DNA from: Candidatus Thorarchaeota archaeon
Lineage (GTDB): Archaea > Asgardarchaeota > Heimdallarchaeia > Heimdallarchaeales > Heimdallarchaeaceae
Direction of reading: 5' to 3'
NCBI GenBank assembly: GCA_048883065.1
Contig: JBHLQZ010000001.1
Span: 1 to 54,936 of the forward strand
Length of the DNA: 54,936 nucleotides
Part shown: in pieces, positions 2,176 to 39,923 of the stretch
How positions within the stretch are numbered: position 1 is the first letter of the stretch
Layout of the letters: each line of letters starts with the position of its first letter
Notes under the pieces: model-generated
Seen by the model: the letters and a program-made list of their open reading frames with translations, nothing else
What the model was told of the DNA's origin: nothing
Databases searched by the model: none
Translations under genes and position numbers: made by a program

Positions 2176-2760
2176 CTAATTTCTTGTATTTTTATTCTTT
2201 CTTTGTTTTCTTTTAAAAATTCTAACAAAAGGAAACCCTAAAGAATAAACCATAAATTCAAAGAAAAACGATCCTTTTTCAGGTGGAGTCCCTTTTAACC
2301 TACTTTCAAACGCATCTAATGTGTTTCCAAGAAGATTTCCCATAGTAATCATTTGGATAAATAGAAGTATGTCTTGTGATTTTTCTTTACCATAAAAATC
2401 CAATAATTTTTCTTTTGATTCATCTGAAGGTAAACCTCCTGTTTCCGCATAATGTAGAGCAAATGCAAGGGCAATTAATTCCTCAGAATCACAGGAACCA
2501 AAATCTTGAGCCATGATCTCATTTATTTCTTCTTCAGTGCATCCATATTTTAATGCTGTTTTAGTATGTCCCCACTCACAATATTTGCATTCGTTTACAG
2601 CAGTAACTGCTAGCATTATTCTCTCTCTAAATTGAGAGCTAATACGTTCAGATTTCATTGCGTCTCTAATTTTGGAGGATTTTGCAATCATTCTTACTAA
2701 ATCTCGCAAAAAACCACGAAATGTATAACTTCTCTTTTTGAAATATTGAGATGCATGCAT
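2176..2760 (-). CDS. Carboxymuconolactone decarboxylase (CMD) / AhpD-like peroxidase family protein
   Basis: CKYCEWGH fits the CxxCxxxH motif typical of AhpD/CMD-fold proteins. 194 aa. Lies 80 nt downstream of the ABC operon on the same strand. Confidence 0.65.
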   Translation of the reverse strand: MHASQYFKKRSYTFRGFLRDLVRMIAKSSKIRDAMKSERISSQFRERIMLAVTAVNECKYCEWGHTKTALKYGCTEEEINEIMAQDFGSCDSEELIALAFALHYAETGGLPSDESKEKLLDFYGKEKSQDILLFIQMITMGNLLGNTLDAFESRLKGTPPEKGSFFFEFMVYSLGFPFVRIFKRKQRKNKNTRN

Positions 2761-2840
2761 AAGTTGAAATTTGACTTCTAATTATATAATTTATTATTTG
2801 TTAAAAAATTAAAAGCAAACTAAAAAAAGAAAAAGAGTAA

Positions 2841-3887
2841 TTAAATTTCAGGGAAATGACAAGCAACATAATGGTTTGATTCAATCTCTTCAAGCATGGG
2901 TGTTTTTTTGCTACATATTTCTTGAGCTTTGTAGCATCTTGGGTGAAATGGACATCCTGAGGGTGGATTTATTGGACTTGGCACATCTCCTTCTAGAATG
3001 ATACGGTCCATCTTAATACGCGGATCAGGGCGAGGAATAGCAGATAGCAATGATACAGAATAAGGATGTGCTGTTCTGCGAAATAGTTCCCCTGTAGGAG
3101 TCATTTCCATAATCTTACCTAGATACATCACAGCTACTCTGTCTGAAACATGTTTAATTACACTAAGATCATGTGCAATAAACATGAATGTTAAGTTAAA
3201 GTCTAGTTGAAGATCATGTAGAAGATTCAAGATTTGTGCTTGAACTGATACATCCAATGCAGAAACTGGTTCATCAAGTAAGATAACCTCTGGATGTATT
3301 GCCAGAGCTCTAGCTATACCTATTCTTTGTCTTTGTCCACCACTAAACTCATGAGGATATCTCAAAGCGTGATAGTCCTCTAATCCTACTTTTGCTAAAA
3401 TCTCAAGTACCCTAGACTCTTTTTCCTCATAAGCCATATCAGGATAATGTATATCAAATGGCTCCTTAATGAGATCAAGAACCATTCTTCTTGGATTTAG
3501 GCTTGAATATGGGTCTTGAAAAACCATCTGTAGTTGGCGTTTGATAGAAAGCTCTTCTTCTCTAGTCATTGGTTGAAAAATATCAATTCCTTTGAAATAT
3601 ACAGAACCTTCTGTTGGTTCCTCAAGTTTGCTTATTACTCTTGCTGTAGTACTTTTACCACAACCAGACTCACCTACTAATCCTAGCGTTTCACCTTTAT
3701 TTAAAAACAGTTTAACTCCATCAACAGCTTTAATCTGCGCAACCACTCGAGAAAATAGCACAGATTGTTGACTTACAGGAAACCATTTTCTAAGATTAAT
3801 CAGATTTATTATTGGTTGGGTTTTAGAGTCCCAATCAGCAAAAAGATCAACTGTTTCATATTCTTCAAATGTTGTTACCATCTTCAT
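2841..3887 (-). CDS. Oligopeptide/dipeptide ABC transporter ATP-binding protein (OppF/DppF-like)
   Basis: Walker A GESGCGKST, signature FSGGQRQR, Walker B ILLDEP, and a C-terminal HPYS...CPFHPRC oligopeptide-type extension. Overlaps the upstream ATPase gene by 4 nt. Confidence 0.88.
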   Translation of the reverse strand: MKMVTTFEEYETVDLFADWDSKTQPIINLINLRKWFPVSQQSVLFSRVVAQIKAVDGVKLFLNKGETLGLVGESGCGKSTTARVISKLEEPTEGSVYFKGIDIFQPMTREEELSIKRQLQMVFQDPYSSLNPRRMVLDLIKEPFDIHYPDMAYEEKESRVLEILAKVGLEDYHALRYPHEFSGGQRQRIGIARALAIHPEVILLDEPVSALDVSVQAQILNLLHDLQLDFNLTFMFIAHDLSVIKHVSDRVAVMYLGKIMEMTPTGELFRRTAHPYSVSLLSAIPRPDPRIKMDRIILEGDVPSPINPPSGCPFHPRCYKAQEICSKKTPMLEEIESNHYVACHFPEI

Positions 3888-6157: not shown

Positions 6158-7918
6158 TTAAAGTTCTATTCGTGGGTCCACTGCCACATAAACAATATCA
6201 GTAACTAAGTTTCCAATCAGAATCAGTATCGTAAGGATTGCCGTCGTACCTAATATCATTGGGAAGTCAAGAAATCCAATTGCTACTACATACTTGTAAC
6301 CTAACCCCGGCCAAGTAAATAGAGTTTCAGTAATTGGAGCTCCTGCTAATGCAGTAGCCAAGAATAAACCAATATAAGTTACAACCGGAATAAGAGTGTT
6401 TCGAAAAGCATGCTTCCATGTTACAACTCTTTCAGATAAACCATTTGCCCTTGCAGCTAGAATGAAATCTTGTCTTAGAACTTCTAACATTGAAGATCTG
6501 ACTAATCTAGTATAGAGCGCCATAAAATTAAATGCTAAGGTAACAGTAGGTAGAACCATATGCATAATTGAGTCAAGTAATCTTTCTGAAACACTTGTCC
6601 ACCACGCGCTCATTTGTCCAGAAAAGAATAAATGCACCGTATCTGAACTAAACACTGGCGTAGGCGTTGGTACTCTATGCGCTTTAGCTGCAGGGAACCA
6701 ACCCAATCCATAACCACTGAAAACGTATATCAGTATTAAACCAAAGACAAATATAGGCATAGATTGAGCTAAAAGAGCAAAAGCACTTGCTGATGTATCT
6801 ATCCATGTGTTTTGATTTTTAGCTGCAACAACTCCTAATGGAATTGAAGTAACCAATGCAATAACATAAGCAGCTAATTGAAGTTTTAGTGTTTCCCAAA
6901 CTAAACCACCAATTATACTATTTATTGGTTGTCCAGAAGTGAAAGACTGCCCCATGTCACCTTGTATTAGGTTGTAAAACCACATTAAAAATTGAACATA
7001 TACTGGTTGATCTAAACCAAGCTTTCGCGTGAGATTAATTCTATCTTGTTCTGTTGCTCTCTGTTTTCCTAATAACATCAATGCTACAGGATCTCCCATA
7101 CCGCTAACCATTACAAACGTCATGATACATATTGCAATAAAGAGAGGAATAAGTGTTAAAAGACGACGAGTAATGTAAGTTGTTAATCTCAATCCAGCAA
7201 CAGTCTTAATCCACCTAACCACAGTGTTTTCGCCTAATCTTCTCCCCATTTCAGTTCCAGCTGTTTTTTGCCAGTCAACTGGAAGGAAAATCCCTGTGAC
7301 TAGCATAAGAATGCCTATTATATATATATAGAAACCAGGACTTATAGATCCAGCAAGTCCTATGTCGTAATATGAAGGAGTTGCATCATTTGGATTAAAA
7401 GTAATTGGATTAAGATTTATCGTAGACGCCGATTGCCCCGTCACTGCTGCTTGATATCTTTCTGCTGCAATAAATATCGTCCGATTCATACTAATGATTG
7501 AAGCTATTAGCCCACAAAGGAATAAAATTGCAGCTGCAATATCAGCAACTGTTCCTCTAGACTTAAATCCTCCACTTTGAAATACTTGCCCTAAAACTGT
7601 AGCTAAAATGGCAAAAATTAGTATAAACCATACTGCAGCGGAAAGAATCACTATGCTGCTTGGTACTTCTGATGATAGAAGATAAGCACTTGTTTTATTA
7701 GTTGCGCTGGAGAATGTCAAAACTTTATATTCAATTCTAAAGGATAACACTCTAACCAAGGTTCCGTTGTTTCCTACTAAATTGGCTGGATCGTTATGTG
7801 TTCCAGCTATTGATGCAGGTTGTGAATCAAAGGTAATTGTATATAATGGTATGAATGCAGAAACTATTAACAAGAGAAATCCAACAATTTTAAGTGAAAT
7901 TGCTACACTTTTATCCAT
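6158..7918 (-). CDS. Opp/Dpp-type ABC permease (OppB/DppB-like) fused to an N-terminal membrane domain of about 245 aa
   Basis: The canonical OppB core starts near YITRRLLTLIPLFIAICIMTFV (about aa 248) and includes ARANGLSERVVTWKHAFRN (EAA loop). The N-terminal part has about 4 predicted TM helices and two hydrophilic loops. Confidence 0.75.
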   Translation of the reverse strand: MDKSVAISLKIVGFLLLIVSAFIPLYTITFDSQPASIAGTHNDPANLVGNNGTLVRVLSFRIEYKVLTFSSATNKTSAYLLSSEVPSSIVILSAAVWFILIFAILATVLGQVFQSGGFKSRGTVADIAAAILFLCGLIASIISMNRTIFIAAERYQAAVTGQSASTINLNPITFNPNDATPSYYDIGLAGSISPGFYIYIIGILMLVTGIFLPVDWQKTAGTEMGRRLGENTVVRWIKTVAGLRLTTYITRRLLTLIPLFIAICIMTFVMVSGMGDPVALMLLGKQRATEQDRINLTRKLGLDQPVYVQFLMWFYNLIQGDMGQSFTSGQPINSIIGGLVWETLKLQLAAYVIALVTSIPLGVVAAKNQNTWIDTSASAFALLAQSMPIFVFGLILIYVFSGYGLGWFPAAKAHRVPTPTPVFSSDTVHLFFSGQMSAWWTSVSERLLDSIMHMVLPTVTLAFNFMALYTRLVRSSMLEVLRQDFILAARANGLSERVVTWKHAFRNTLIPVVTYIGLFLATALAGAPITETLFTWPGLGYKYVVAIGFLDFPMILGTTAILTILILIGNLVTDIVYVAVDPRIEL

Positions 7919-10420: not shown

Positions 10421-10909
10421 TCAATATTCTAAGAGTTTTGATAACATTAACCTTTCTTTCTCTTGAATCATTTCAACTTCAACTAGTTGCCTTGCTTCTT
10501 GTTTCTGAAGAATTTCTGTTAACATATAATAATCCGAAGGAATGATGTTATCTCTTTTTTCGATAATTTCTTGTGCAGAAAACCATTTTAACTCTCCTTC
10601 ATCTGTTGATAAGATCATATCATTTTCTACGCTAACTTGGCATAAAATAATTATGAAATGTTTAATTTTGCCTTCCTTTTCAACTAATCTCTCATTAATA
10701 ACTCCCTTTACCCCTCCCCATCTAACATTTAAGCCAGTCTCTTCCTTTATTTCTCTAAGCATAGACTCTTTAATTTCCTCATTGTGCTCAATTTTTCCTC
10801 CAACTAAAGCCCATTTAGTCTTATACTCTCCTCTTTTTCGCTTTATCAAAAGCCATTTTGATTCGTATCTTATTCCTGCCACTACAATGTTAACAATGCC
10901 GTTTGTCAT
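10421..10909 (-). CDS. NUDIX hydrolase
   Basis: Nudix box GGKIEHNEEIKESMLREIKEETGL (Gx5Ex7REUxEExGU). Confidence 0.85.
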   Translation of the reverse strand: MTNGIVNIVVAGIRYESKWLLIKRKRGEYKTKWALVGGKIEHNEEIKESMLREIKEETGLNVRWGGVKGVINERLVEKEGKIKHFIIILCQVSVENDMILSTDEGELKWFSAQEIIEKRDNIIPSDYYMLTEILQKQEARQLVEVEMIQEKERLMLSKLLEY

Positions 10910-10963
10910 ATATTTTTGAATTTCACATCATATCAAAAAATTTTCCTTCAGATTCATAAAACA

Positions 10964-10980
10964 TTTAAACATTTATTATT
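10964..10980 (+). promoter_or_regulatory. Candidate BRE/TATA region for the five-gene operon
   Basis: TTTAAACATTTATTATT ends 21 nt upstream of the ATG at 11002. There is no SD-like motif before this first gene, consistent with a leaderless or near-leaderless transcript. Confidence 0.3.
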
Positions 10981-11001: not shown

Positions 11002-11598
11002 ATGACAAACTTCATCCAAAATATTTCACAATCTATTCGTAGAAGACTAGGTTACCCAGAAGTAACAATACTGGTTATGGGAGATGATATACCAGCAACC
11101 AGAAACAGAGTTTTATTGTTACGTTCTTATACTTCTTTAAGAGAATTCATAATAGATAGTTACTTAACAGAATTGCCATACACAGAGAAATTTAAATTTA
11201 AACCAAAGCAATTCTTACCCTTTGAAGGACTTCTTTATTTGATAGATGCTACAAAAGAAGAGATGATTAAACATGAAAGAAATTATTTTTGGGAGAAGAT
11301 TATCTGGGCAGAAGAGACCAAGAACTTACCAATAGCTGTATGTGCTTACAACTCTGAGCTTCAAGGAGCTCTATCTAGAGGAGAACTAATTGAGAATTTA
11401 TCTCTGATTAGACTTACAGATCGTCTTTGGAATCTTTTTGAAATATCCAACGAAGAATCTATGCTTGAAGTGTTAAAGTGGATGAAACAAATAATTCATA
11501 TGGGTTATGTTAAGTCTTGGTCAGAAAAAGAAAAATTATTAGAAAAAATAAAACCAATTAAGATTCAAATTCCTTCAGAAGAAGAGAATGATAAATAA
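11002..11598 (+). CDS. Arf/Arl/Sar-like small GTPase fold with degenerate G1, G3 and G4 motifs (predicted pseudo-GTPase)
   Basis: By-eye alignment to Arf1. N-terminal helix plus VTILVMGDDIPATRN corresponds to RILMVGLDAAGKTT (P-loop GK lost). GLLYLIDATKEE corresponds to GLIFVVDSNDRE. IAVCAYNSEL corresponds to LLVFANKQDL (NKxD becomes YNSE). RLWNLFEIS...VLKWM corresponds to RNWYIQATC...GLDWL. No DxxGQ is present. Confidence 0.6.
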   Translation: MTNFIQNISQSIRRRLGYPEVTILVMGDDIPATRNRVLLLRSYTSLREFIIDSYLTELPYTEKFKFKPKQFLPFEGLLYLIDATKEEMIKHERNYFWEKIIWAEETKNLPIAVCAYNSELQGALSRGELIENLSLIRLTDRLWNLFEISNEESMLEVLKWMKQIIHMGYVKSWSEKEKLLEKIKPIKIQIPSEEENDK

Positions 11599-13196: not shown

Positions 13197-14582
13197 TTGC
13201 CACATAGAATATATTTCATTACAGAAGCTGAATTCACAGATCCATTACAACACTATGGTGATGTAGAATTTGTATTGGATTTTGAGGACGCTGCTCAAGT
13301 CTTACGGTTATGGAGAAATCCACATTTAGGTAGAAGCTCGCGTGAAGGAGCAGTTCTATCAATCGCAGCAAAAAACTCTGTTGCTATCGAAAATATACTT
13401 CAGAAAATCATGAATACTTATCTTACTCCTGAAGAAGAAGAGCGTTTAGTTAATGAACTGAAACTTCTAAGATTCATAGGAGATCATGTTCTCCCCGATG
13501 TTTTAGAAAGAGTTAATCGTAATGAACTCCAGACTCTCGAAGATATTCTAAAGTATATACAAGATTTATTACGTGAATTAAAATACGAAGGTTCAATCGA
13601 TTTGCAACAACTAGCTGATAAATTAAATCAACTAAAAGATATAGTAGATATAGAAATTACTGATGCTTTTGGAAGAAAAAAGAGGATTTCACGCGAAAGT
13701 GTCATGGATTTGCTTGGAAAAATATTAGGTCGATATTTGTTGAAACAAATTTCTGTTGCTCCAATTGATGAAATCCAAAAACGTCCAAGAGGAACTATTC
13801 GTTTAAAAGAAACCTACAGAAGCGCAATTCTTGGTTCTCAAACAATACCTCCAACCTCAGTCAAACAAGAAGACATTGTGAGAGTAAAGAAAGACAGACG
13901 ATCTTTGGTTTATCTTATTGTAGATATGAGTCAATCAATGAGAAAAACTGTTTTTGAAGGTAAAATGTCTAGATTAGATGGAGCTCTATTAACAAGTTTA
14001 AGTCTTTATTACTATTTTAAACTAATAAACAGAAGAAAAAGAAAGCGTCATGATATGTTCAAACTTGCAGTTGTACCTATAAGAAAAAATACAACAGTAG
14101 TTGATGACGATAAAAAAATGGAACATCTTCTGTTATCTGCAGAAGCTAAAGGAAAAACATACATGGTTCAAGCTGTTCAAGCTGCAATTGAACATGCGAA
14201 AAAGCAACATTTAGACAAAGACATAGATGTTCAATTCACTATAGTAACAGACGGTATGCCCAATGTTCCAACTTTACCATTTAACTACCGAAAAAGTGAT
14301 GCTTTAATTAGATATTTCTCTGAAATACAAACTAAAACTAAACCAGAAACAATAGAGTGTTTAGTTCAACTTAACGCTATTTTTACTAGTCTGAAAAAAG
14401 ATCGTTCAAGGAAATGGAACATATCTTATTTCTTAATGGGAACAGAGTCACTCCGCAACAAAGAGTTATACATTCATACAAAACAAATGCTGAAAGGTAT
14501 TACTAGACCAATTTTAATTGATCCAGCCCAAATCAAGAAATTAGGGGAACAAATTCTAAAGGAGAGTATATTGTATGCTTAA
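13197..14582 (+). CDS. von Willebrand factor A (VWA) domain protein with intact MIDAS and a helical N-terminal region of about 230 aa with no recognisable family
   Basis: LVYLIVDMSQSM is the MIDAS DxSxS. It is followed by GKTYMVQAV (Thr) and FTIVTDGMPN (Asp). TTG start, with GGAG 8 nt upstream. Confidence 0.75.
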   Translation: MPHRIYFITEAEFTDPLQHYGDVEFVLDFEDAAQVLRLWRNPHLGRSSREGAVLSIAAKNSVAIENILQKIMNTYLTPEEEERLVNELKLLRFIGDHVLPDVLERVNRNELQTLEDILKYIQDLLRELKYEGSIDLQQLADKLNQLKDIVDIEITDAFGRKKRISRESVMDLLGKILGRYLLKQISVAPIDEIQKRPRGTIRLKETYRSAILGSQTIPPTSVKQEDIVRVKKDRRSLVYLIVDMSQSMRKTVFEGKMSRLDGALLTSLSLYYYFKLINRRKRKRHDMFKLAVVPIRKNTTVVDDDKKMEHLLLSAEAKGKTYMVQAVQAAIEHAKKQHLDKDIDVQFTIVTDGMPNVPTLPFNYRKSDALIRYFSEIQTKTKPETIECLVQLNAIFTSLKKDRSRKWNISYFLMGTESLRNKELYIHTKQMLKGITRPILIDPAQIKKLGEQILKESILYA

Positions 14583-16149
14583 AGTTGAATTAGAAGAAAT
14601 TGTTGAGGTTTACCAAAAAGCTAAGGCAGATTTTAGGGTTTTAATGGGTTCTAATCCAGAAAATTATCGTGTTCTAATTTTTATAAATCCCGAACTCCAT
14701 GTTTCAGTTAACCGTGTTGTTGAAATAACTGGAACCCCTCAAGCAATACTTACATCTGAGCAAATTACAAACTTAAGATCAGCTAGAATAAATGATTTTC
14801 TTCCAACGGGAAAGGAAACCGTTTATAACTCGTTACCTACATTAATTTATCTTTCAGTGCCATCTTATGATTTAACAAAAGAACAAGAATTAACACTACG
14901 AATTATGCTAATTCATGCTTTTGCTCATGCTTATATGAACGAAAAAACGGAATCAAATTCTGCAAGAACTCTTTCAAAACTATATCAAATTGATGTAATT
15001 CTAAAAGAGTTGATGGTAAATAATGTTTTCAAATTAAATCAAACATCCGGAAACAAGCATAGTTGGGCTTGGCAATACTTCCAAGATTTAATTGGTGTGA
15101 TACGTTTATTTACTGAATCAAACGTAGAAGATTTTTACACTCCTCCTGAGGATGCAAGAAAATATACTTTATTCAATAATTTCTCGATAGAAGCTATAAA
15201 TTTAATAGGAGAAAGGGCTAAGCTCGCAAGGAAAAAACACCTTCATGAATTAATCGATGAAGGTTTTGCGCACTATATACAAATGAAAGCCTTAGATTAT
15301 TTACTTGAGAAAGAGGAATATAAACTACCTAAGAGAGATGAAGATAAGAAAATACAATATCCAAACGATTTGAAAGCATTTTTAGCTCCACCAATTGGAG
15401 AATTTAGTCTTGCTATAATGGAACGACTTCTAAGTAAACTTGGAAATGAAGAGGAAATGTTCAAGAAACTCTTTAGCTACAAATCAGATTATGAATTGTT
15501 AGAAGAATTCTCATGGGATGAAGTTAAAGATTTACTAGCAGTGAATAAGAATATACACTCTGAAAGTGTTGTTGAAACATGGCATTCTTCAAAAAGTAGA
15601 TGGACTGATATCTGGTCTGTTTATGCTTATGGTTGGAGATTAATAGAAGAATATACCAGAAAAGTATATAGAAAGAAATACTCAACTTTCGGACAAATCC
15701 TTGATGATAAACCAAGGATAACTTCCAAAGGCTATGTTAAGGTGGGAGAAAAGAAAGTATACGTTTTTGAAATTAATGACTATGGAATTGGAATTGATCA
15801 ATTAGTTATCCTCCATAATCATATGTCTCTTTATAGAGATGATTTTCGAACAATTTTACCTGCTTTTGCTGATGTGGTGATATTCAAGAAACTAGGTGGA
15901 ATACATGTAGCAACACTCTTTGCAGTTCATAAAACAAGGTATCAACCATTATCTCCTTATAATTTACCAATCGCAACAAGAGCTGTGCAAGTTACAAAGA
16001 AGAAAGATGCATACAAATTTGATTTAGACGATGAGAAAGATGAAAAGATAGATGTAAGTGAAATTGATTACACATATTTACACAAAGTAACACAGCCGCA
16101 GAGGGGAGCTTTGGCTTATTTAATCAAAGAGGGGGTATATGAATTATGA
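14575..16149 (+). CDS. Hypothetical 524-aa protein with an HAxxH motif; possible inactivated zincin-like domain
   Basis: Long uninterrupted ORF. Its start overlaps the VWA gene stop by 8 nt, with GGAG 10 nt upstream. Motifs are LIHAFAHAYMNE (HAxxH, aa 114-118) and LIDEGFAHYIQ (aa 227-237). I recognise no other family signature. Confidence 0.55.
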   Translation: MLKVELEEIVEVYQKAKADFRVLMGSNPENYRVLIFINPELHVSVNRVVEITGTPQAILTSEQITNLRSARINDFLPTGKETVYNSLPTLIYLSVPSYDLTKEQELTLRIMLIHAFAHAYMNEKTESNSARTLSKLYQIDVILKELMVNNVFKLNQTSGNKHSWAWQYFQDLIGVIRLFTESNVEDFYTPPEDARKYTLFNNFSIEAINLIGERAKLARKKHLHELIDEGFAHYIQMKALDYLLEKEEYKLPKRDEDKKIQYPNDLKAFLAPPIGEFSLAIMERLLSKLGNEEEMFKKLFSYKSDYELLEEFSWDEVKDLLAVNKNIHSESVVETWHSSKSRWTDIWSVYAYGWRLIEEYTRKVYRKKYSTFGQILDDKPRITSKGYVKVGEKKVYVFEINDYGIGIDQLVILHNHMSLYRDDFRTILPAFADVVIFKKLGGIHVATLFAVHKTRYQPLSPYNLPIATRAVQVTKKKDAYKFDLDDEKDEKIDVSEIDYTYLHKVTQPQRGALAYLIKEGVYEL

Positions 16150-16916
16150 TGGACTTCTTTAGAGGGATGGTTATTGGAAGAAAACTAAAAAGCGAGAAAC
16201 CATTAGATAGAGTACACTTCGCGCTTTTTCTACAGAAAAAACCTAAAACAAGGAATGTTAAGAAAATTCTTCCTCTAATAGAAGATGCTGATTGGAATGT
16301 TAGAAATGCAGCAACTTCAACATTAATTCATCTGATAAAACATTTTCCTGAAACAAAAGAGAAAGTGTTGGAAAACTTGCATAATTTGATTGAAAGAAGT
16401 TCTTTAGCGATCAAATTATCAACTTTAGAAGTTTTAGGGAAACTGAAAGATTATTCATCTAAACCTTATCTTGTTAAGGTTCTAGAAGAAAGCGATTATG
16501 ATCTACAATATGCAGCAATAAGAGCTATAGGATATCTAGATGATGTTGATGTATTGTACCCTCTCACAAACGTAGTTTATGCTAAAGATTACATAACTAG
16601 AAGGGCAGCTATTTTGTCAGTGATTAGAATTTCTAATTCTGTCAAAGCTGAGGAACAAATAGAAAAACTTACTCCACATATCCATATAATTATTGAATCT
16701 TATCTTGAGTTAGATCAATTAGGTGAAATCTTCTGCAAGATTCTAGATTACGGTGATTTCAACCAATTCCCAAATATGAAAGGATACAATGAATCAGAGA
16801 TAGTTAAATTAGAAGATTTAATAGAGCAAAAAGACTATAGAGTAGAAATGTATCAAAACTTCGCAAAATTGATTTTCCCCAAATACTTCCCAATTGTTGA
16901 GAATATAAATTCATGA
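16146..16916 (+). CDS. HEAT-repeat (PBS-lyase-type) alpha-solenoid protein
   Basis: Repeated D-x-D/N-W/x-x-V/I-R-x-x-A units about 31 aa apart: EDADWNVRNAATSTLIHL, SSLAIKLSTLEVLGKL, ESDYDLQYAAIRAIGYL and KDYITRRAAILSVIRI. ATGA overlap with the upstream gene. Confidence 0.72.
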   Translation: MMDFFRGMVIGRKLKSEKPLDRVHFALFLQKKPKTRNVKKILPLIEDADWNVRNAATSTLIHLIKHFPETKEKVLENLHNLIERSSLAIKLSTLEVLGKLKDYSSKPYLVKVLEESDYDLQYAAIRAIGYLDDVDVLYPLTNVVYAKDYITRRAAILSVIRISNSVKAEEQIEKLTPHIHIIIESYLELDQLGEIFCKILDYGDFNQFPNMKGYNESEIVKLEDLIEQKDYRVEMYQNFAKLIFPKYFPIVENINS

Positions 16917-38945: not shown

Positions 38946-39033
38946 TTTTTATTTTATTTCATAATTTCGTTTTTCACATAGATATATGATTTAACAGAAA
39001 GAATAAAAAGCGAAGAGATGAAAGAAACCACAA

Positions 39034-39126
39034 GGGCCAGTAGTCTAGTATGGATAAGGCATCGCCCTTCGGTAGTTTACTGGAGAAAGGCGAAGGTCGT
39101 AGGTTCAAATCCTACCTGGTCCGCCA
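39034..39126 (+). tRNA. tRNA-Arg (anticodon UCG) with a 15-nt intron at the canonical 37/38 position (39073-39087); CCA encoded
   Basis: Acceptor GGGCCAG/CTGGTCC. D-arm GTCT-AGTATGGATA-AGGC. Anticodon stem TCGCC/GGCGA. T-arm GTAGG-TTCAAAT-CCTAC. The loop plus intron folds as bulge(3)-helix(4 bp CUUC/GGAG)-bulge(3), with both splice sites inside the bulges. Confidence 0.8.
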
Positions 39127-39182
39127 AACTAATTCCCAGAGCAGATATAGAAAATTCTCAAAACAATAATAGTGTGTGCAAT

Positions 39183-39923
39183 ATGAGAAACAAAAAAACC
39201 TTAATGCTAACCATCTTAATTATACTCTACTCCTTTCTTACTTTACTTGCTTCAAATGGTTTCTCACACAAGCTGAATTTAAATGTTGAAGATTGGTTAA
39301 AATATAGGATTCTAGCTTCTAGCGATACTGAAAATATGTTTGTTGGAAACTGGCCCCCAAGCTACTATTATGGAAATTGGTCAGTCATACCCGAAGATTG
39401 GATTATGTTTAATGTATCTTCCGTTATCTCTTCCGAAATCAATGGCACATTATTTCTTGGAAACACAATAAATAACACTATATTTTACAATGTAAGAAAT
39501 ATAGATGTTGCATTTGCTTTAAGTTTGAGTATATACCCTTGGAATGGAGGTTTTTTTGCTAATGAATCGGATTGGGACAATATTGAATTACAAGTCCAAG
39601 AGACAAACACAACTATAAACAATCTATCTAATTTTGAACATACACTTAATGGAACAACACATTCGTACGAAGTTAAGATTTTCAATACAAAAGATTACTA
39701 TGGTCAAAATTCCTCATTCTATTATCATTCAGATACCGGAATACTTCTCAAAGCCTATACTTCTTATGGCTTATATGAATTGAACATAACTTTGGTTTCT
39801 ACTAGCATAGAAATTAATCCCACAATGCAGACAACTGGATATGGCTTTAATTTAGCTATTGTGTCTATTGCTCTCATCCCTGTAATTCTTCTATTTAGAA
39901 GGAAATACTTCGATCGTAAATAG
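39183..39923 (+). CDS. Secreted, C-terminally anchored glycoprotein-like surface protein
   Basis: Start moved to the ATG at 39183 (MRNKKTLMLTILIILYSFLTLLASNG) because the upstream part of track ORF 39018-39923 is the tRNA-Arg gene. About 10 NxS/T sequons. C-terminal TM plus the basic tail RRKYFDRK. Confidence 0.55.
   Translation: MRNKKTLMLTILIILYSFLTLLASNGFSHKLNLNVEDWLKYRILASSDTENMFVGNWPPSYYYGNWSVIPEDWIMFNVSSVISSEINGTLFLGNTINNTIFYNVRNIDVAFALSLSIYPWNGGFFANESDWDNIELQVQETNTTINNLSNFEHTLNGTTHSYEVKIFNTKDYYGQNSSFYYHSDTGILLKAYTSYGLYELNITLVSTSIEINPTMQTTGYGFNLAIVSIALIPVILLFRRKYFDRK

Follow-up and report, generated by a model that had tools for sequence, protein, structure and literature searches.

An Arf-derived protein without G motifs heads a conserved AAA+/VWA/HEAT gene cluster in Heimdallarchaeia

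The G boxes of the published Asgard Arfs are reported to be well conserved (PMC11914678), and the Asgard ArfR proteins bind both GTP and GDP in crystals. Here we describe an Arf-related gene in which these motifs have been lost. It lies in a stretch of 54,936 nucleotides from Candidatus Thorarchaeota archaeon (GTDB family Heimdallarchaeaceae; GenBank assembly GCA_048883065.1, contig JBHLQZ010000001.1, positions 1 to 54,936 of the forward strand), hereafter the window, and its product, referred to as pseudo-Arf in the following, is encoded by the first gene of a cluster that continues with genes for a divergent AAA+-type ATPase, a protein carrying a VWA (von Willebrand factor A) domain, a 524-residue protein and a HEAT-repeat protein (Table 1). 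The best sequence and fold matches of pseudo-Arf are the Asgard ArfR/AArf proteins (HodArfR1, 8ouk/8oul; GerdArfR1, 8oum/8oun) and the eukaryotic Arf and Arl proteins. Common to all of them are the C-terminal half with strand 4 (GxxxxxD), the signature LSL.RL.DR.W and the Trp of helix 5, as well as an N-terminal amphipathic helix, and the Asgard ArfR proteins come from the same host lineage. Unlike Arf and ArfR, however, pseudo-Arf has lost the G motifs along with switch I, one interswitch strand and the switch-II helix, and it is fixed in an AAA+/VWA/HEAT cluster. The two main studies of Asgard Arfs deal with G-box-conserving, nucleotide-binding proteins, and their text mentions neither AAA+ nor VWA proteins nor operons. 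Unannotated 'divergent' Asgard Arf sequences were set aside for later study in the Vargova preprint, and six accessions or locus tags of the present family were not found in those of its supplements that were searched. The statement of a first-pass annotation of this DNA, that such a gene had not been described, is consistent with the searchable Asgard Arf literature, although NCBI names some members 'ADP-ribosylation factor-like protein'.

A further comparison is offered by the class i pseudoGTPases (the AAGAB N-terminal domain, CENP-M and the pG1/pG2 domains of p190RhoGAP), which like pseudo-Arf have a GTPase fold with the G motifs lost, and in which the fold is used as a protein-binding module. 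In AAGAB, AP sigma subunits are bound by the pseudoGTPase domain away from the switches, at a surface that overlaps helix 4-strand 6-helix 5 of Arf1 (PMC12490416), which is the region of conservation in the pseudo-Arf family; CENP-M is reported to be unable to bind GTP (PMC4080450). Of the features of the class, a GTPase fold that is kept, G motifs that are lost and continued selection are found in pseudo-Arf, and the loss of motifs and segments makes an absence of nucleotide binding likely. No specific relationship to these proteins was seen, however, the Arf family accounting for the 50 best fold matches and for all of the best 60 sequence matches listed, and pseudo-Arf differs from the eukaryotic class i members in being archaeal, operon-encoded and partnered with an AAA+ protein and a protein bearing a metal ion-dependent adhesion site (MIDAS).

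The neighbouring genes recall the MoxR-type AAA+/VWA pairs, such as RavA-ViaA, CbbQ-CbbO, NorQ-NorD and BchI-BchD, with midasin in eukaryotes, and we know of no described system of this type that has a subunit with a small-GTPase fold. In these pairs, as in the present cluster, an AAA+ gene and a gene for a MIDAS-bearing VWA protein are adjacent and accompanied by accessory proteins. According to the logic expected for them, the VWA protein recruits a target and the AAA+ ATPase remodels it (PMC3495828). In the literature searched, no subunit with a small-GTPase fold was described for a MoxR/VWA system, and no paper joined Asgard, MoxR and von Willebrand. We therefore rate pseudo-Arf as belonging to known kinds (the Arf family, the pseudoGTPases and the AAA+/VWA pairs) and not as a new category.

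The relationship to Arf is recognisable from sequence in the second half of the protein. The Pfam family PF00025 (Arf) matched pseudo-Arf with 28.6 bits at a gathering cutoff of 22.3 (E-value 1.2e-6), over residues 74-163 only, and the 60 matches listed by phmmer among PDB sequences were Arf, Arl and Asgard ArfR chains alone. A profile built from three clades of the family detected Arl3 in the PDB at an E-value of 9.7e-8. When a cross-clade profile was compared by hhalign with a small alignment of canonical Arfs (human sequences and one Heimdall GTPase from locus L003), residues 67-166 were aligned with ARF1 residues 78-178 at a probability of 97.9 and an E-value of 5.4e-13. Similarity to Arf is thus significant for the C-terminal half only, the N-terminal half being undetectable by sequence, and the latter is assigned to Arf because the predicted structure alone matches there. 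An AlphaFold prediction made with 40 close homologues reached a predicted local distance difference test score (pLDDT) of 44.9 and was discarded; the final model, based on a 63-sequence alignment that includes distant orthologues and covers clades 1 and 3 only, has a pLDDT of 83.6 and a predicted template modelling score of 0.80. In a Foldseek search of the PDB with this model, the best 50 matches were all Arf, Arl, Sar or ArfR structures, with template modelling (TM) scores of 0.53-0.74. The best was HodArfR1-GDP (8oul; E-value 8.9e-9, TM 0.62/0.66, about 190 aligned columns), and the atypical Arl13B, which acts on Arl3, was among the top matches. As judged from the predicted structure, the whole chain is Arf-like. 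Pseudo-Arf descends from an Arf-family GTPase and keeps an Arf-like alpha/beta core. The first-pass annotation had aligned the protein by eye with Arf1 along its length, which holds by sequence for the C-terminal half and, for the N-terminal half, by way of the predicted structure only; it had also staked its reading on a significant small-GTPase hit, and the profile and fold comparisons gave significant matches, exclusively Arf-family in the lists inspected.

All five G elements of the GTPase are absent or deleted. GDDIPATRN occupies the position of GLDAAGKTT (G1), where G27 is nearly invariant across clades and R34-N35-R36 are invariant within clade 1 only. At the guanine-specifying Asp position of G4 the residue varies between E, N, D and H, FEISNEE occupies the (C/S)A(T/K) position of G5, and the G2 element is likewise missing. 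In-register G1, G3 (DxxGQ) and G4 ([NT]KxD) motifs were found in 0 of the 112 family members, the few regular-expression matches being all out of register; some clade 3 members keep a truncated 'VGKT', resembling a P-loop minus 4-5 residues. The degenerate P-loop position and the missing DxxGQ had been noted on first inspection, together with three pairings made by eye, of GLLYLIDATKEE with GLIFVVDSNDRE, of CAYNSEL with ANKQDL and of RLWNLFE...LKWM with RNWYIQ...LDWL, all of which agree with hidden Markov model (HMM) alignments.

The loss extends beyond the motifs: compared with ARF1, about 14 residues are missing between P-loop/helix 1 and strand 4. In the model, a strand at residues 21-28 leads into a helix (31-42); residues 49-56 form one strand only, residues 57-75 a loop that is ordered, and residues 76-82 the next strand, from which the chain continues. 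There are five strands as compared with six in Arf, one strand standing in place of the beta2-beta3 hairpin, and no switch-II helix. These lengths indicate that switch I and strand beta2 were probably deleted, and the G2 Thr with them. With the G motifs, switch I and the interswitch strand lost, pseudo-Arf cannot, on this reading, be a GTP/GDP switch, and canonical guanine-nucleotide binding has in all likelihood been lost. The nucleotide independence proposed earlier is supported as far as sequence goes, with the G elements gone in every clade and no position of the former pocket and switch segments conserved across clades in a gene that is under strong purifying selection.

The pattern of conservation was examined across the three operon-linked clades, a position being counted as conserved if the same residue occurs in at least 80 % of each of them. 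Fourteen positions were found (L24, G27, W97, E98, L124, E131, S134, L135, R137, T139, D140, R141, E147 and W160). The segments of the P-loop/helix 1, switch I, switch II and G4 together span 65 positions and contribute none of the fourteen, as against 9 from the 26 positions of the helix 4-strand 6 segment (residues 123-148); the former nucleotide pocket is therefore free to differ from clade to clade, whereas the face opposite to it is held constant. We infer that the helix 4-strand 6 patch (SLIRLTDR) is a candidate partner-binding face. Within clade 1 the ATRNR loop, D52, K90 and R93 are also invariant, and the ATRNR loop may have a clade-specific role.

Pseudo-Arf is a real gene under strong purifying selection and not a decaying copy. 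The ratio of nonsynonymous to synonymous substitution rates (dN/dS) is 0.085-0.086 in comparison with two unsaturated orthologues (dS 0.30 and 0.43), and 112 sequences from at least five clades, all of them without G motifs, have an uninterrupted reading frame. The close family comprises 43 clusters, all at least 56 % identical, with a mean column identity of 72-74 %. With the better-conserved AAA+ neighbour as a guide, two more clades were found at the same operon position; the sequences ILFIGEKSETRDY and ASYNAEKAIAL belong to the second Heimdall clade, and HYLRVGNTSPLLD and IIPNTSKYGSL to a Kariarchaeaceae-like clade. When 1.84 billion representative proteins were searched exhaustively with hmmsearch, only 22 family clusters were obtained at an E-value of 1e-10 or better, and the clades P0196/P0197 and P0199/P0202 were added. 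Below the family the score falls off, from 71.8 bits to 49.6 bits; the matches under this gap are for the most part, and in every inspected case, canonical Arf or Arl proteins aligned in the C-terminal half only. Neither canonical Arfs nor clade 2 proteins came up in a word-index profile search that admitted E-values up to 10; both were recovered by the exhaustive search. As the G motifs are absent from every clade, their loss must be old. The gene had been described as a 'dead copy', which is right with regard to the loss of motifs; a recent degenerate paralogue it is not, in view of an old multi-clade family with a dN/dS of about 0.085.

At the N-terminus, residues 2-16 are predicted to form a helix with a hydrophobic moment of 0.59, ranking first among the 183 15-residue segments of the protein (0.52 for ARF1 residues 2-13). 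Residue 2 is Thr, and without Gly2 there is no myristoylation-type site. The amphipathic character of this segment and Thr2 had both been pointed out from the sequence. A comparable N-terminal segment is found in clade 1 and clade 3 sequences. The clade 2 pseudo-Arfs (L008, 7402-7923, and the head genes of L050-L058) are without the N-helix and carry a polybasic C-terminal tail (KPKVLKKKSSSTKTKKTEKKK), which could be an alternative route to a membrane or to nucleic acid.

The order of Arf-like, AAA+, VWA, 524-residue and HEAT protein genes recurs in about 40 loci, and the cluster persists in loci whose right-hand flank is different. Pseudo-Arf lies immediately upstream in 44 of 56 AAA+ loci. 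Among GTDB species representatives there are 31 pseudo-Arf loci, with the AAA+ gene next in all 29 that have enough contig, and in each of two complete Ca. Heimdallarchaeum chromosomes one pseudo-Arf locus was matched. In the window the pseudo-Arf and AAA+ genes are separated by a 15-nt gap with GAGGT and the AAA+ and VWA genes by a gap of 35 nt, whereas the VWA and 524-residue protein genes overlap by 8 nt and the latter and the HEAT gene by 4 nt. With five tightly spaced or overlapping genes on the forward strand and pseudo-Arf as the first of them, the proposal that it heads a putative operon holds. A functional tie to an AAA+/VWA pair, as the first-pass annotation had it, is supported by the near-obligate linkage, but the unit comprises five genes, including those for the 524-residue and HEAT proteins.

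Homologues of the AAA+ protein number 107, across Heimdallarchaeia and some other Asgard lineages. The more distant of them (36-54 % identity to the window protein; L005, 8001-9560; L006, 8001-9551; L007, 5069-9530) occur in loci with neither a HEAT nor a pseudo-Arf gene, either alone, as in L005 and L006, or divergent to the VWA and 524-residue protein genes, which suggests that the unit of five genes came together within Heimdallarchaeia. In L043 pseudo-Arf is on the opposite strand, 1.8 kb away. A ParB/sulfiredoxin-like protein with a DGHHR motif adjoins the pseudo-Arfs of two clades (L043, 6186-6917; L095, 1164-1919), its gene in L043 lying between the minus-strand pseudo-Arf and the AAA+ gene. 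In the clusters of L048, L049 and L057, which are without pseudo-Arf, the first gene (6342-6926, 6356-6937 and 2454-3257, respectively) encodes a protein of about 194 residues, called with 267 residues in L057. Its N-terminus resembles a zinc ribbon (CxxC...CxxC), and it may substitute for pseudo-Arf.

The AAA+ protein has a Walker A motif GPTGEAKT with an invariant K67 and a Walker B motif VVNE with invariant N225-E226, in which Asn stands instead of Asp; N268, R284 and R293 are also invariant. Between the Walker motifs lies an insert of about 150 residues with invariant C92, C123 and C126 (GCPF...SLCPxC), possibly a metal site. The Pfam scores of the protein are marginal (Sigma54_activat, 21.2 at a cutoff of 20.2; AAA_5, below cutoff), and neither the single sequence nor a profile gave a meaningful match to PDB sequences. 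The lack of a significant PDB match, the marginal Pfam assignment, the Walker B Asn and the Cys insert distinguish it from MoxR. In the VWA protein the MIDAS is complete, with D243xS245xS247, T321 and D352-G353 invariant in 11 diverse orthologues, while the match to Pfam VWA_2 is weak and below cutoff; its gene adjoins the AAA+ gene in all loci with room for it. The 524-residue protein had no match in Pfam, NCBIfam or the PDB, and its candidacy as a metallopeptidase was rejected, the HAFAH motif not being conserved. The HEAT protein is of the common prokaryotic PBS/AlphaRep type, with PDB sequence matches mostly to AlphaRep-type designed repeats; given these matches and an Adaptin_N score below cutoff, it was not accepted as an adaptin relative. 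A defence system was likewise rejected, since PADLOC gave only a weak TRIP13 match over the Walker A region of the AAA+ protein and the stable synteny argues against a defence island.

We consider pseudo-Arf to be probably, if by no means securely, a nucleotide-independent Arf-fold adaptor subunit of a five-protein machine, and in this sense a pseudoGTPase of the class i type. A nucleotide-free, partner-binding subunit is proposed because the parts of the switch are lost, the distal face is under selection and the linkage to AAA+, MIDAS and HEAT genes is near-obligate. Pseudo-Arf would act as a constitutive nucleotide-free subunit together with the AAA+ protein, the MIDAS-bearing VWA protein, the 524-residue protein and the HEAT protein, and would dock on a partner from the cluster via helices 3 and 5 and the loop between helix 4 and strand 6 (ExxSLIRLTDR). 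More speculatively, in clade 1 the basic amphipathic N-helix could place the complex at a membrane or a target.

Several observations weigh against such an adaptor. Its nucleotide independence is read from sequence, the AAA+ assignment is marginal by profile with an Asn in Walker B, and the invariance of ATRNR in clade 1 implies that the loop does something there. The SLIRLTDR segment corresponds to a partly structural Arf signature (LGL..L..R.W), so that its conservation need not mark an interface. The N-helix is missing in clade 2, and its confidence in the model is modest (pLDDT 58-70). With regard to linkage, the AAA+, VWA, 524-residue and HEAT genes of L040, L045, L048, L049 and L057 form clusters without pseudo-Arf directly upstream, and in clade 4 (P0196; L094, 4348-8612) pseudo-Arf follows a 1187-residue multi-WD40 protein with no AAA+ or VWA gene nearby; the family is therefore not bound to the AAA+ cluster in every lineage.

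Of the other explanations, the most serious, to which we attach a distinctly smaller but real likelihood, is that pseudo-Arf is a client, which the VWA protein would capture via its MIDAS using D140, E131 or E147 and which the AAA+ protein would remodel or release, as in MoxR/VWA pairs. The MIDAS is fully conserved, the conserved patch includes acidic residues that are invariant, the AAA+ linkage is strict, and vWA proteins have been proposed as substrate recruiters for such an AAA+ clade (PMC3495828); a single-copy, dedicated client beside its chaperone, however, would leave no obvious output function, and the cluster persists without pseudo-Arf directly upstream in several lineages. The computed results presented here do not separate a client from an adaptor.

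It appears unlikely that pseudo-Arf binds a nucleotide or phosphate ligand in a rebuilt pocket (for example with R34, N35, R36, K90 and R93 in clade 1) and still switches. The invariance of ATRNR, D52, K90 and R93 within clade 1 would fit such a pocket, as would the possibility of migrated catalytic residues in pseudoenzymes, noted in reviews (PMC10211241). Its residues, however, are not common to the clades (0/65), switch I has been deleted together with the G2 Thr, the model shows no switch-II helix, and the G4 and G5 elements of guanine specificity are gone from every clade.

Still less probable is a decoy or regulator of canonical Asgard Arfs, which would pair with ArfR or sequester effectors, the operon being secondary. 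The presence of the atypical Arl13B among the top fold matches is in its favour, and in some genomes canonical Arf-like GTPases are found a few kb away (L003, L029), but their position is not conserved, the linkage is to the AAA+ gene and not to a GTPase, and the switch surfaces used in such pairings are the least conserved parts of pseudo-Arf. The canonical GTPase of Ca. Heimdallarchaeum (GLENAGKT, DVGGQ, NKAD) has a C-terminal extension of about 130 residues and is encoded about 5 kb upstream of the cluster (L003, 4123-5061; L004, 280-1218; L029, 488-1423; L030, 457-1392). A decaying pseudogene or annotation artefact, for which the loss of all catalytic motifs might speak, can practically be dismissed in view of the low dN/dS, the intact frame in 112 sequences of at least five clades and the confident fold prediction.

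Upstream of the pseudo-Arf gene, an archaeal element resembling a TATA box and B recognition element (BRE) is a candidate promoter by its sequence (Table 1). In an alignment of the upstream regions of 13 Heimdallarchaeaceae loci, the core xTAAA after CATAA is conserved and the surrounding sequence diverges; a BRE-like purine run accompanies the TATA-like box, and within the cluster a conserved box of this kind occurs ahead of the pseudo-Arf gene only. A scan for sigma-70 promoters gave 34 sites for 32.4 expected and is uninformative, the host being an archaeon. A NUDIX hydrolase gene (10421-10909, minus strand) is divergent from the pseudo-Arf gene across a 92-nt intergenic region and is kept in the four Heimdallarchaeaceae loci inspected (L001-L004; identity of their pseudo-Arfs to that of the window, 72 % and 56 %). 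Downstream of the cluster, the window contains uvrB and uvrC. Elsewhere in it a 90-nt tRNA was detected at 39034-39126 (Rfam, 53.5 bits), for which ARAGORN calls no anticodon; it is most likely an intron-containing archaeal tRNA, and a mechanically called open reading frame (39018-39923) overlaps it.

Table 1. Coordinates, in the window, of the pseudo-Arf gene, its segments and the other features of the cluster
Feature	Coordinates	Strand	Basis or remarks
BRE/TATA-like element, archaeal (CATAAAACA TTTAAACA); candidate promoter	10955..10971	+	31-47 nt 5' of ATG; upstream alignment
Pseudo-Arf open reading frame, 198 aa, first cluster gene	11002..11598	+	ATG at 11002, stop ends at 11598
N-terminal amphipathic helix, residues 2-16 (TNFIQNISQSIRRRL)	11005..11049	+	Predicted helix, hydrophobic moment
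P-loop remnant, residues 27-36 (GDDIPATRNR)	11080..11109	+	No Lys or Ser/Thr at G1 positions
G4 remnant, residues 114-122 (CAYNSELQG, vs FANKQDLPN)	11341..11367	+	HMM alignments
Helix 4-strand 6 patch, residues 124-147 (L..GELIENLSLIRLTDRLWNLFE); candidate partner-binding face	11371..11442	+	L124, E131, S134, L135, R137, T139, D140, R141, E147
Divergent AAA+-type ATPase, 515 aa	11614..13161	+	Walker motifs, marginal Pfam
VWA-domain protein, 461 aa, MIDAS intact	13197..14582	+	Invariant MIDAS residues, weak Pfam VWA_2
Conserved 524-aa protein, unknown fold	14575..16149	+	Same position in about 40 loci
HEAT-repeat protein, 256 aa; last conserved gene of the cluster	16146..16916	+	Pfam HEAT_2, E-value 2.1e-24

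Heimdallarchaeia are the closest archaeal relatives of eukaryotes, and their Arfs, like those of other Asgard archaea, have been studied as precursors of eukaryotic membrane traffic, with surveys stressing the conserved G boxes. The same lineage long ago fixed an Arf fold without a switch, tied to a predicted ATP-driven machine. Tentatively, and as a doubtful extension of the adaptor reading, this old Arf-derived pseudoGTPase may serve in Heimdallarchaeia as the subunit that targets a MoxR-like remodelling machine of the AAA+/MIDAS/HEAT kind. If this were true, the cooperation of an AAA+ motor, a HEAT solenoid and a nucleotide-free Arf fold would be older than eukaryotes, and binding through the distal helix 4-strand 6-helix 5 face, of the kind seen in AAGAB and the second contact of Arf1 with AP1, would be an ancestral use of the Arf fold; a novel mode of nucleotide binding, should that be true instead, would be of interest too. 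As a prokaryotic pseudoGTPase that is defined by an operon, and whose partners are named by the genome, pseudo-Arf is directly testable. It offers a handle on an uncharacterised and widely conserved AAA+/VWA/HEAT module of Heimdallarchaeia, and through it one can ask if the distal face of the Arf fold has long served to bind proteins.

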